From: a virus
Lineage: Duplodnaviria; Caudoviricetes
Reading direction: 5' to 3' (one strand)
Virus record (IMG/VR): IMGVR_UViG_3300020369_000015
Location: 1-28,471 of that record
DNA length: 28,471 nucleotides
Part shown: positions 21,145 through 24,449 of the stretch, in pieces
Layout: each line of letters opens with the position of its first letter
How positions within the stretch are numbered: the stretch's first letter is position 1
Made by a program: the position numbers and the translations under genes
Notes under the pieces: model-generated
What the model saw: only the letters and a program-made list of their open reading frames with translations
Told to the model about the DNA's origin: nothing
Databases searched by the model: none

Positions 21145-21450
21145 TTACACTTCGACCGGATCACCCTTAAGGGTGTTGGCCATAATGGAACGGTACCGAT
21201 CAATCCGTTGGTTAATGCCGCTGATTGTTGAGTCAGCGCGGTGAATGTCTGCCGGGTTTTTCATGTCTGATTTGTGCGCTTCAATGAGCGCTATATCAGC
21301 ATGACAAGCTGCAATCATTTTGGGTAAAAATGAGCTCGGCACGTGGCTGAGGTGTGTTTGTGTTTTTAGCCACGCCTCTGCAGCCATATCTGCCAGGTGT
21401 ACAAATCTTGATATATAACCCTGAGTGTCTTGTTTTCTTTGTTTACTCAT
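21145..21450 (-). CDS. Hypothetical protein in cII position
   Basis: 101 aa, ATGA overlap with cro; no CII motif recognised. Confidence 0.65.
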   Translation of the reverse strand: MSKQRKQDTQGYISRFVHLADMAAEAWLKTQTHLSHVPSSFLPKMIAACHADIALIEAHKSDMKNPADIHRADSTISGINQRIDRYRSIMANTLKGDPVEV

Positions 21451-21701
21451 GCGGCACCCTCTACATCATGCAGATCATTAAAAATAGCGGCGATATCAGG
21501 CCTTACATCGCGAGGCTCTATGATTGAATCAGGTGTTATTTCCGCGGATGCATCCCGTAAAGCTTTGCACATTTCAATTCCCGCTTTTCTCGGCGTGTAA
21601 GCCAACTGGCTAAGATAGCCAATCGACGTGTTAGCCTTTTCTGCAAGAGCATCTCTTACCTCTTGTGACTTGTTTTCACTTAACCATTGCTTAATGTTCA
21701 T
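21447..21701 (-). CDS. Cro-like HTH regulator
   Basis: ALAEKANTSIGYLSQLA HTH and VRPDIAAIF tail; divergent from repressor. Confidence 0.85.
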   Translation of the reverse strand: MNIKQWLSENKSQEVRDALAEKANTSIGYLSQLAYTPRKAGIEMCKALRDASAEITPDSIIEPRDVRPDIAAIFNDLHDVEGAA

Positions 21702-21715
21702 ATCTCACCAATGCG

Positions 21716-21781
21716 TTACCATCTTGGTAATACTTTATACTTGACAAATGTTACCGTCAAGCTAATTTACCCATTAGGTAA
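21716..21781. promoter_or_regulatory. OR region: three operators and PR promoter
   Basis: TTACCATCTTGGTAA (21716), TTACCGTCAAGCTAA (21751), TTACCCATTAGGTAA (21767); minus-strand TTGACG-17-TAAAGT (21760-21732). Confidence 0.85.
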
Positions 21782-21808: not shown

Positions 21809-22261
21809 ATGTCAAAAAAATTGGACTTTGTTATGGACGTAAAAGAGGTTAGAAGATTAAACCTCGAATACCTGATCGCTAGTGCCGGATCAGTAAAAAG
21901 GATTGCCGAAATACTTGGCTCAAATGCTAGCTATATCAGCCAAGTACGAAATGGTAATGCAAACAAAACAATGGGCGATAGTACAGCCAGGAGGCTAGAA
22001 AAAGCGTTTGGAAAACCACATGGATGGATGGACAAGCTACAGTTTGACGATAATGAGAATTACGAAAAATTAAATGACGAAGAGTTGCTTACGCTTTCGG
22101 TAAGGACGGTAATTAACCAGCTGATCGCCGCTGGAATATATGAGCCGAAAAAGTCCATCGATATAGATGCTGTTTCGAGTTTAATCGTCACCGAATATAA
22201 ACGTTTACTCGGTGACAAATCAATCAAGCCGACTGGCGTTGACGGTAGGAATCAAGCTTAA
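21809..22261 (+). CDS. CI-like repressor (Xre HTH) without S24 peptidase domain
   Basis: RRLNL...IAEILGSNASYISQV...MGDSTARRLEKAFGKPHGWMD; short helical C-terminus; start may be ATG 21833. Confidence 0.88.
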   Translation: MSKKLDFVMDVKEVRRLNLEYLIASAGSVKRIAEILGSNASYISQVRNGNANKTMGDSTARRLEKAFGKPHGWMDKLQFDDNENYEKLNDEELLTLSVRTVINQLIAAGIYEPKKSIDIDAVSSLIVTEYKRLLGDKSIKPTGVDGRNQA

Positions 22262-22532
22262 CAATTTGTGCATTGTGCAAACTGCCATATGATATCGAAT
22301 TTTTTTCGATATACTCTAATAGCTGCTCTATTTTCTCTTCTCTTTCTTTTATAAATTCAATTGTTTTAAGGCCGTCATTTGACTGTTCTGACATTGCTTT
22401 AAGGTAGCGAATTTCAACTAACTTGGTTGCAATCTCGCTATCTTTCAATGTTACTTTTGGTCTTTTAAAGCACGCAATGTACATTATTAAAATTGATAAA
22501 AACGAAAGAAACGCTAGTAATATCGTGAACAT
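22224..22532 (-). CDS. Membrane-anchored protein (cassette gene C)
   Basis: AAGGAG RBS; N-terminal TM FTILLAFLSFLSILIMYIACF followed by KRPK and a charged helical domain. Confidence 0.75.
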   Translation of the reverse strand: MFTILLAFLSFLSILIMYIACFKRPKVTLKDSEIATKLVEIRYLKAMSEQSNDGLKTIEFIKEREEKIEQLLEYIEKNSISYGSLHNAQIVKLDSYRQRQSA

Positions 22533-23062
22533 ATATACTCCTTTAAAGATTCACCGATAAGCAAATAAGCAATTATGAGTGCTGATGACACATTAAGGAT
22601 CAATGTGTAAGCGTCCCACAACCACCAGTAACTCTGATACTCTGTATTAATTATTAACTCGCCATCAATCAAAAGTTCGCCTATATGATTTAAGCCCACA
22701 ACATTCCTATCTACGTGCATTAGAAACTGGAGAATGATGCACACGGAAAGGTTTACAAAAATAAAGCTCGATGTGAATGAAGGTCCGACTTTTAAAATAA
22801 AAAAGCCATAAAATAAAGTTGATGCCACATATAAAAGAAGGCGGGATGAGTATCTATATTGAACCTGCTCATCCCACTGCAAGCTTATTATCCAAGCGTA
22901 TACGAAATGGCCTATGGCATACATTAGTACAACCATCAACGAAGCCATTACTAGCTGTTTGTTGTTTGGCTTAAATTGCCAATTTATTATAAAGATTATA
23001 GCGGTAAGGATTACCGCCCATAAATCTATAATCCAGCCCATTGCAGTGGATAATTGAAGCAT
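22514..23062 (-). CDS. ~5-TM membrane protein (cassette gene B), 182 aa
   Basis: ATG 23062 with AAGGA RBS; five hydrophobic segments by eye. Confidence 0.8.
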   Translation of the reverse strand: MLQLSTAMGWIIDLWAVILTAIIFIINWQFKPNNKQLVMASLMVVLMYAIGHFVYAWIISLQWDEQVQYRYSSRLLLYVASTLFYGFFILKVGPSFTSSFIFVNLSVCIILQFLMHVDRNVVGLNHIGELLIDGELIINTEYQSYWWLWDAYTLILNVSSALIIAYLLIGESLKEYICSRYY

Positions 23063-23066
23063 TAAG

Positions 23067-23279
23067 TTAATCCTTGTTTTTATTCGTTCCTGGCTTCGGG
23101 TTTGGCCTTGGTCCGCCGTGGTCTGTGCCGCCCGCTCCAAGCGAGTTTACTTTGCAGGCCCATGGCGCAAAACCACAAACTAAACCTCTAAAATCATACT
23201 CGCTGCTAATTGCAAATGGTGAGTACACAAGCGATGTTACGGTCGCTAACATAAAAGCCTTTTTGACTGTTTTCTTCAT
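23067..23279 (-). CDS. Small secreted protein with Sec signal peptide (cassette gene A), 70 aa
   Basis: MKKTVKKAFMLATVTSLVYSPFAIS then SEYDFRGLVCGFAPWACKVNSLGAGGTDHGGPRPNPKPGTNKNKD. Confidence 0.75.
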   Translation of the reverse strand: MKKTVKKAFMLATVTSLVYSPFAISSEYDFRGLVCGFAPWACKVNSLGAGGTDHGGPRPNPKPGTNKNKD

Positions 23280-23398
23280 CTTAAAAATCTCTTGGTTAGT
23301 AGATGCAAAATTGCATACCAAATATTACCAATTAATAAGATTTTTAAACCCACCTAGCGCCCTTTTAGTTAACTTTACTGGTCTTACCAGTTTATGTA

Positions 23399-23460
23399 TT
23401 ACCATAATGGTATTGCTAAAATTTACCATTAAGGTAACAATAGCATTACCATAAAGGTGA
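23399..23460. promoter_or_regulatory. OL region: three operators and probable PL
   Basis: TTACCATAATGGTAT (23399), TTACCATTAAGGTAA (23423), TTACCATAAAGGTGA (23446); plus-strand TTGCTA-17-AACAAT. Confidence 0.8.
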
Positions 23461-23582
23461 GTAAAGTAATAATGATTACCTTCACTGCTGGTTGGTTGTG
23501 AGAAAAAGTTTTTTGAATATATCCGTTGAACAATGACGGTGGCAAGTAAACATTGTATTTATACAATACATTAAGGTTATTT

Positions 23583-24449
23583 ATGATTGAATATGGAAAA
23601 AGTAACATTTCGTTAAATGACGATATTGATAATTTGATTTTGAAGTTTAACGATCTGGTCAAAATAATATCAGATGCAATTAATTTCACCGTGAGTTCTA
23701 ACATTATCAAGGAAGATGGCTTTATTTTTGTAGACGTATGGCGGGATCATCAAGACCAACTCATCCGAACAGTTAGCAAGCGTCACAAGCCGTCAGAATT
23801 TAAAGATGCGCTAACCAAAATATGCGGTGAGTTACAGGGAATTGTTACTGATAATTGTCTAACGGAAGGAGTTGAGCATTCTGGTTTATCGATAGGGCCA
23901 TTGCCTCGTGGTTTTTATTCGCAACTGCAAAGTAATGATCATATCGACTTTGGGAATATCCAGGCGCTGAAATTTAATATTGAAGATATCGCGCATTCCC
24001 TTTCCAATTTATGCCGCTTCAACGGCCACACAAGCACTTTTTACTCCGTTGCCCAACACAGTGTACTGGTTAGCTGTATTGTGCCGCGTGAGCATGCCCT
24101 GGCAGCCTTGCTGCATGATGCTGCAGAAGCTTACTGCGGTGATGTGGTAAGTCCCCTAAAAGCACTGCTGCCAGTCTATCAGGCTATCCATAACGATATT
24201 GAGCGAACCATATTTTTACAGCTGGGGCTCGAATACCCAGCCCCTGCTTGTGTTCGTGATGCCGATATCGTTGCTTTAGCTACTGAGGTGCGCGACCTCA
24301 TGCCAAACAACCCAGCGCTATGGCACAACATTAGCGATATCGAACCCCATCACGAAATTATTAAACCCTGGACACCAGAGTCAGCAAAAGAGGTGTTTTT
24401 ACAGCGCTACTTTGATCTGCAGTCCAAAAACATCCAGCAAGCCAGTTAA
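23583..24449 (+). CDS. HD-domain phosphohydrolase (YfdR-like) with N-terminal extension
   Basis: IEDIAHSLSNLCRFNGH, YSVAQHS, LLHDAAEAYCGD, DADIVALATEVRDL; ATG 23583 preferred to TTG 23553. Confidence 0.88.
   Translation: MIEYGKSNISLNDDIDNLILKFNDLVKIISDAINFTVSSNIIKEDGFIFVDVWRDHQDQLIRTVSKRHKPSEFKDALTKICGELQGIVTDNCLTEGVEHSGLSIGPLPRGFYSQLQSNDHIDFGNIQALKFNIEDIAHSLSNLCRFNGHTSTFYSVAQHSVLVSCIVPREHALAALLHDAAEAYCGDVVSPLKALLPVYQAIHNDIERTIFLQLGLEYPAPACVRDADIVALATEVRDLMPNNPALWHNISDIEPHHEIIKPWTPESAKEVFLQRYFDLQSKNIQQAS

Follow-up and report, generated by a model that had tools for sequence, protein, structure and literature searches.

The question raised by this locus is what three small genes do between the repressor gene and the left operators of a temperate phage. 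The window, meaning the whole stretch of DNA that was analysed, is a virus record of 28,471 bases that belongs to a lambdoid temperate phage and encodes terminase, portal, capsid, tail, lysozyme, Q, P, repressor, excisionase and integrase. The closest relatives of the window phage are prophages of Alteromonas, and marine and estuary metagenomes contain DNA near-identical to the window. The initial annotation had proposed that the three genes, here called A, B and C, form a ligand–receptor–transducer module, and the sequence comparisons presented below partly support this reading.

Layout of the immunity region

The AT-rich minus-strand open reading frames that had been reported between cI and OL are all three present at that place (Table 1). 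The A-B-C operon is convergent with cI and overlaps the last 38 nt (the 3′ end) of this gene; the start of gene C overlaps the end of gene B by 19 nt, and the sequences AAGGA and GGAG precede the starts of B and C. The GC content of A-B-C is 0.36–0.39, compared with about 0.50–0.56 in most 500-base bins of the structural genes. In a comparison with two relatives, each of the three genes showed its greatest divergence at codon position 3 (for gene A, 0.29–0.38 at position 3 and 0.59–0.68 at position 2), which argues that all three genes are coding. An antisense frame of 126 aa (23074–23454, plus strand) runs over gene A and OL and is likely to be a shadow frame.

Table 1. Features of the immunity region of the window
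Feature	Position	Strand	Description
Gene A	23067..23279	-	70 aa; Sec-type leader (by eye), C-X3-P-X2-C loop, core GAGG[TS]xHGG; likely signal precursor
Gene B	22514..23062	-	182 aa; five-helix membrane protein; likely receptor
Gene C	22224..22532	-	102 aa; N-terminal anchor, soluble domain, C-terminal IVKLDSYR; likely output
cI-type repressor	21809..22261	+	150 aa; HTH and short conserved C-terminal domain; likely target of C
Cro-position gene	21447..21701	-	84 aa; divergent from cI; assigned by position and a weak PHROG match
OR	21716..21781		three TTACC-N5-GGTAA sites, at 21716, 21751 and 21767
OL	23399..23460		three TTACC-N5-GGTAA sites, at 23399, 23423 and 23446
Extra operator-like site	22089..22103		inside cI; one mismatch to TTACC-N5-GGTAA

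The product of the gene divergent from cI is taken by us to be Cro. With up to two mismatches permitted, the operator motif TTACC-N5-GGTAA has 31 matches in the window against 11 expected, and the OL sites lie 120–180 nt upstream of gene A and also upstream of the divergent early operon. The first early-left gene (23553–24449) encodes an HD/YfbR-like 5′-deoxynucleotidase domain behind an unnamed N-terminal domain of ~120 aa. The promoter scan gave 8 matches versus 7.6, which is the level of chance, and did not locate the promoter of A-B-C. Just past the stop codon of C, inside cI, there is an 18-nt imperfect inverted repeat (22180–22223), which was not called by the terminator scan and is a possible terminator for the converging transcripts.

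In phage lambda, the interval between cI and OL holds the rexAB cargo, which includes a polytopic membrane protein and is co-transcribed with cI from pRM. A-B-C resembles rexAB in its place between cI and OL and in having a polytopic membrane protein, but it lies on the strand opposite to cI and encodes a putative exported peptide. The analogy with rexAB, drawn in the initial annotation, thus fails on orientation, since an operon that runs head-on into cI and overlaps its 3′ end is not co-transcribed with it from pRM and does not have the rexAB layout. Homology to RexA or RexB was not detected in Pfam, PHROG and PADLOC searches with A, B and C, and family scans of the three proteins returned nothing over the cut-off.

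Spread and transcription of the locus

Single-sequence searches with B found six relatives and a weak match (E 0.05) in Pseudoalteromonas phage HS6, the locus of which holds the same A-B-C trio. Single-sequence locus searches with B in genome and viral contigs gave no relative, and profiles were needed. When the best 8–9 candidates per genome were scored, the B profile detected the family in 33 of 401 genomes of the Alteromonas family and a second profile in 69 of 401; at the order level, B was found in 17 of 401 genomes, and at the class level in 1 of 401, the centre genome only. Versions of the locus are carried by Alteromonas portus HB161718, Alteromonas sp. KUL42 and Pseudoalteromonas phage HS6. 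Some genomes hold at least nine B matches. Five genomes (G018, G026, G099, G172 and G215) have at least 8–9 B copies each, and the copies that were read in G099 have a peptide of their own, several of them lying beside integrases.

It had been proposed that B, as a protein of no known family, should recur together with a small upstream peptide frame, and this expectation was borne out. A small Gly-rich/Pro ORF immediately precedes B in 58 of 71 loci (a locus lacking a B match was dropped, and the loci are not all independent) compared with 6 of 230 control genes, the motif (three or more Gly within seven residues, then Pro) having been set after the data were seen. Loci collected later agree with the motif in 18 of 26 cases, one of which repeats L084; among the eight misses, seven show a comparable small ORF that is poorer in Gly, and in the remaining one the start of B is miscalled. 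B is followed by C or fused to it in 53 of the 71 loci and in all 26 later ones. The 71 loci comprise 16 with a long fused B, 37 with a separate anchored C and 18 with neither; one of these 18 is a filter miss, and most are chromosomal with 1–3 B genes. A match (E 2e-5) between the tail of one fusion (P0009) and the separate C protein of L005 makes it likely that B and C function together as a unit.

The description of A-B-C as a phage module as such did not hold. The locus is not phage-specific, many loci being chromosomal, and many of them sit in stable positions beside housekeeping genes. In HS6 and related Pseudoalteromonas prophages the trio is located at the tail end, far from the repressor. 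HS6 is a transposable phage, and a 202-aa HTH regulator (L202:5903–6511) is encoded divergently from its early genes; whether this regulator has an S24 domain bears on whether distant copies of A-B-C act on repressors. Seven chromosomal arrays (L019, L032, L040, L044, L045, L047 and L177) contain one peptide gene and 2–3 B paralogues without C and lie between arginine-biosynthesis genes and an outer-membrane gene, both recognised by eye. Such arrays are possibly receptor or immunity arrays.

Among metatranscriptome contigs from four runs (two studies), found with the window as query, B is represented in every run, cI in two runs and the B-C junction in one; this signal is weak, the contigs may be DNA, and strand and level are not readable from them. 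A few short pieces map elsewhere in the window. The contigs do not cover A, cro and the early genes, an absence that proves nothing.

The presence of B and cI together in these RNA contigs would suit cargo for superinfection exclusion or anti-phage defence, in which A would plug or prime B, and attack would release B-C to block DNA entry or to arrest the cell. The AT-rich composition, the tail-end moron position in HS6-like prophages and the fact that the same slot holds other membrane-anchored cargo in sister phages also agree with this explanation. It is nevertheless unlikely, since PADLOC 2.0 (a library dating from 2023) gave no match (0 families) for 55 B proteins, A, C, CI and one fusion, stable chromosomal positions next to housekeeping genes speak against it, and repeated cores and leader swapping better suit a diffusible signal.

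Peptide, membrane protein and anchored protein

Gene A encodes a basic N-terminus and a hydrophobic stretch at 8–18, both kept in relatives, and the alignment to these relatives permits cleavage after A-I-S or I-S-S. The C-X6-C loop (CGFAPWAC) and the Gly/Pro/Lys tail pointed out in the initial annotation are seen in the sequence. The combination of a putative Sec signal peptide and a Cys loop holds for the window's A and for its subfamily, which conserves C-X3-P-X2-C (the loop residues vary) and GAGG[TS]xHGG; it does not extend to the whole family, the common feature of which is a Gly-rich/Pro core. The A protein of L084, from a distant B clade, keeps C-X3-P-X2-C and contains SGNGGG(E/D)EPP twice. 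In many A genes the core is tandemly repeated 2–6 times (five times in L053, six in L060 and L243, three in L055, two in L002 and L084), and these repeats may be likened to multi-copy pheromone precursors; Phr and AimP precursors can be multi-copy. Three further peptides (L182:5047–5424, L189:4883–5185 and L062) combine a signal peptide with 5–6 near-exact core repeats and sit between an rsmI-like gene and an rnpB-like region, both identified by eye.

When sorted by eye, the A leaders fall into at least three types (Sec-like, double-glycine-like and FlgM-like) and a remainder. Matches to the FlgM N-terminus were obtained for 3 of 5 tested A proteins (E 0.055–0.077), and a bacteriocin signal for 1 of 5 tested A relatives with double-glycine-like leaders (E 0.09), all of them under the cut-off. 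The leader of the window's A is Sec-like, and no bacteriocin match was found for this protein. Leader types switch 11 times on a 34-row tree of B, and only the Sec-like label clustered beyond shuffles. These changes suggest that export matters and its route does not, which fits a signal.

A small exported peptide with a polytopic membrane partner is known from agr (AgrD/AgrB/AgrC), ComC/ComD and class II microcins. A-B-C shares with these systems the polytopic partner and, in some A members, double-glycine-like leaders; it differs from them in that window-type loci contain no histidine kinase, response regulator or dedicated transporter, and B has no family match. The leaders just mentioned, with the bacteriocin signal in one A relative, and the Gly-rich cores raise the question of whether A could be a microcin-like antibacterial peptide and B (with C) a membrane immunity protein, the whole being fitness cargo of the lysogen. 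The occurrence of 2–4 B genes per A and of at least nine copies per genome, as in poly-immunity loci, points in the same direction. However, the cores measure ~10 residues and form tandem repeats that follow Sec-like leaders, window-type loci were not seen to have a transporter or modifying enzyme as a neighbour, and immunity leaves the anchored C, the C-B fusion and the swap with S24 repressors unexplained, which makes a microcin distinctly improbable.

The predicted model of B is confident (pLDDT 93.1, pTM 0.86) and consists of five long helices and one short helix, in agreement with the earlier estimate of about five transmembrane segments. Conserved polar residues (H116, D118, N120, Y71 and Y152) lie near the membrane surface, and the window's B contains Y71, H-x-D-R-N (116–120) and W146/W149/Y152. 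By the positive-inside rule, the topology of B is probably N-out/C-in, and this would place Y71, H116-D118-R119-N120 and W146/W149/Y152 on the periplasmic face, where the ligand site would be. As the initial annotation had stated, B does not belong to a recognised family: no Pfam, NCBIfam, PADLOC or PDB sequence family was found for 55 members. The Foldseek search with the B model returned nothing at E ≤ 0.001, the best match in the VIA structure comparison (Z 8.8, rmsd 4.9 over 119 residues) is within the helical-bundle background, and the ESM Atlas search led to unnamed Pseudomonadota clusters. The name ‘MreD’, assigned automatically in the ESM Atlas, had no Pfam support and was rejected. 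B founds an unnamed family of five-helix membrane proteins, and a conserved three-part family is established, the function of which we infer.

The polar residues near the membrane surface, together with the position of B always directly after A, would also be expected if B were not a receptor and served, as a membrane enzyme or exporter, to process or modify A (AgrB-like or RiPP-like). This role seems highly improbable: not one position is fully conserved across 55 or 39 members, H116 being frequently substituted, A has a leader of its own, and neither an enzyme family nor a fold match was obtained for B.

Gene C encodes one anchor at 4–22 followed by KRPK, which confirms the earlier description of an N-terminal anchor with basic residues behind it. 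The protein ends IVKLDSYRQRQSA, the last residues being IVKLDSYR, and the SspB proteins that were fetched end EVVSLEAFRKKK, KIISLDAFRKK or EVISLDSFRKK. The fetched SspB tails are of two types, L[KRT]V[VI]K or [VI][VI]xL[DE]xFRK, the second of which rests on these fetched sequences, no paper giving that tail having been found. According to the available text of the sources, the E. coli SspB tail is the XB peptide RGGRPALRVVK (PMC3983244), and SspB docks on the zinc-binding domain (ZBD) of ClpX via its ClpX-binding sequence (PMC7804408). The last residues of C match one natural type of SspB tail. In other respects C is unlike SspB, being membrane-anchored and without the SspB domain (PF04386, the substrate-binding domain, has no match in C), so that the tail alone is alike, and most C proteins are without this tail.

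Among 40 C tails, 7 agree with patterns derived from the SspB tails; among 922 control tails, none does. Four of the seven matches are the window and three close relatives, and 2 of 26 later C genes match, weakly; the idea that C is an adaptor is therefore a lead for the clade of the window and not a rule of the family. Two other C proteins end LRVV and LKVVS. The Alteromonas SspB ends SLKVIK and so has the other tail type than the window's C. Relatives conserve the C tail even though the CI frame that overlaps it varies, and the possibility that the tail is conserved only through the overlap with cI was rejected for this reason.

Repressors facing the locus and a candidate switch

No Peptidase S24 domain was found in the 150-aa CI or elsewhere in the window, and in this respect the repressor is unlike SOS-cleavable repressors of the lambda CI and LexA type. 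The C-terminal domain is the better conserved part of CI, being identical to those of L002 and L003 at 37 of 46 positions, compared with 51–52 of 78 for the N-terminal HTH half. Sister prophages were located via the neighbouring early gene. Three of them (L080, L083 and L268) possess S24-type repressors of 238–241 aa (the S24 domain is present in L080 and L083) and other cargo without A-B-C, whereas in the window, L002, the L003/L004/L010 group and the L084/L270 element A-B-C faces S24-less repressors of 148–151 aa. This contrast, of 3 versus 4 elements, could have arisen if entire immunity regions were exchanged as blocks. The swap between A-B-C and S24-type repressors, as read from the sequences, suggests that A-B-C is linked to the lysis/lysogeny switch. 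On the tree, the B protein of L084 occupies a long branch well away from the window's B, a placement that points to a second recruitment.

Further cases of an S24-less HTH gene facing A-B-C are three integrase-bearing elements (L165, L176 and L178), two of which, L176 and L178, have the HTH gene one gene removed, with AlpA, and are taken by us to be AlpA satellites. The same is seen in L191 (lambdoid), L169, L187, L192, L265 and L266. An adjacent repressor is present in 9 of 40 wide regions (7 of them tested with Pfam) and in 3 of 26 later loci, most loci being without one. The absence of an adjacent repressor at most loci, the distance of the HS6 copy from its own repressor and the FlgM-like leaders, which hint at flagellar export, would be in line with a peptide-sensing module having a host target (ClpXP substrates, motility or envelope functions), so that its place beside cI is incidental. 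We consider a host target quite unlikely, because S24-less HTH genes opposite the module recur across B clades and in several elements that are unrelated, C overlaps cI, and the OL sites are just upstream of A.

With moderate confidence, A-B-C is best read as a peptide-sensing switch that acts on CI and chooses between dormancy and lysis by the phage's own peptide. This reading starts from what is directly seen, namely the genes, their family-wide linkage, the B-C fusions, the repeated cores, the missing S24 domain, the S24 swap and the likeness of the C and SspB tails. A is probably exported and processed into a Gly-rich/Pro peptide that is likely bound by B on the periplasmic side, and C likely relays the signal to a CI without a cleavage domain. 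A narrower version, which is rather doubtful when taken as a whole, is that, as long as peptide is not bound, C tethers ClpXP via its tail and hands CI over to be degraded. Peptide accumulating from lysogens nearby would, in that case, stabilise CI and maintain the dormancy of the prophage. The sign of this effect, in which the peptide would silence C, is argued from arbitrium by analogy only; with the opposite sign, the peptide would trigger induction.

In Vibrio phage VP882, the cytoplasmic transcription factor VqmA encoded by the phage senses a small molecule of the host, and the VqmA-Qtip pathway inactivates the repressor without DNA damage. A-B-C would resemble VqmA-Qtip and other antirepressor modules in being a phage-encoded sensor of an outside cue, but a peptide encoded by the phage would be the cue and a membrane protein the sensor. 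The similarity to arbitrium (AimP/AimR/AimX) and RRNPP systems lies in a putative secreted propeptide encoded by a phage beside a putative sensor and tied to the lysis/lysogeny switch, and in the repeated cores of A. In contrast, B is an all-helical membrane protein without a sequence match to the intracellular TPR-type RRNPP receptors, the host is Gram-negative, re-import would not be needed, and the output would be an anchored protein and not AimX. A-B-C is consequently not a member of arbitrium, since the receptor type fails, and may nevertheless work like it. As far as the available text of the sources goes, phage peptide communication is that of arbitrium/RRNPP in phages of Bacillota (PMC13220667, PMC10075063), which has cytoplasmic receptors.

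The literature search, conducted at the level of abstracts, with subscription journals thinly covered and supplements outside its scope, found no description of such a module. There is somewhat less than an even chance that the loci represent a widespread, undescribed peptide-pheromone system of marine Gammaproteobacteria, composed of an exported Gly/Pro peptide, a new five-helix receptor and a membrane-anchored ClpXP adaptor, and adopted repeatedly by phages and satellites in place of SOS induction as an arbitrium-like census of lysogens. If the reading as a switch is true, a peptide system with a membrane receptor in phages of Gram-negative bacteria would be a new signalling class and would offer one explanation of how induction is decided in marine prophages that have no SOS-cleavable repressor. 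It would also offer many natural peptide–receptor pairs, at least nine per genome in some genomes, and the predicted A ligands are short enough for synthesis.

Some further genes of the sister elements deserve mention. In L084 (1644–2066, minus strand) and likewise in L270, a second HTH-like gene is located between cro and cI; its product is 31% identical to the window's CI, has a similar C-terminal domain and may be a second target or a relic of a window-type repressor. In the S24-type siblings, the early operon begins with an additional regulator-like gene (L080:3397–3846, L083:3435–3872 and L268:3930–4367), which by eye resembles LuxR and was not seen in the siblings with A-B-C. The alternative cargo of the same three prophages is an unnamed protein encoded convergently with cI (L080:2336–3118, L083:2373–3482 and L268:2839–3813); it had no Pfam match in the two cases scanned and appears by eye to be membrane-anchored in two of the three.
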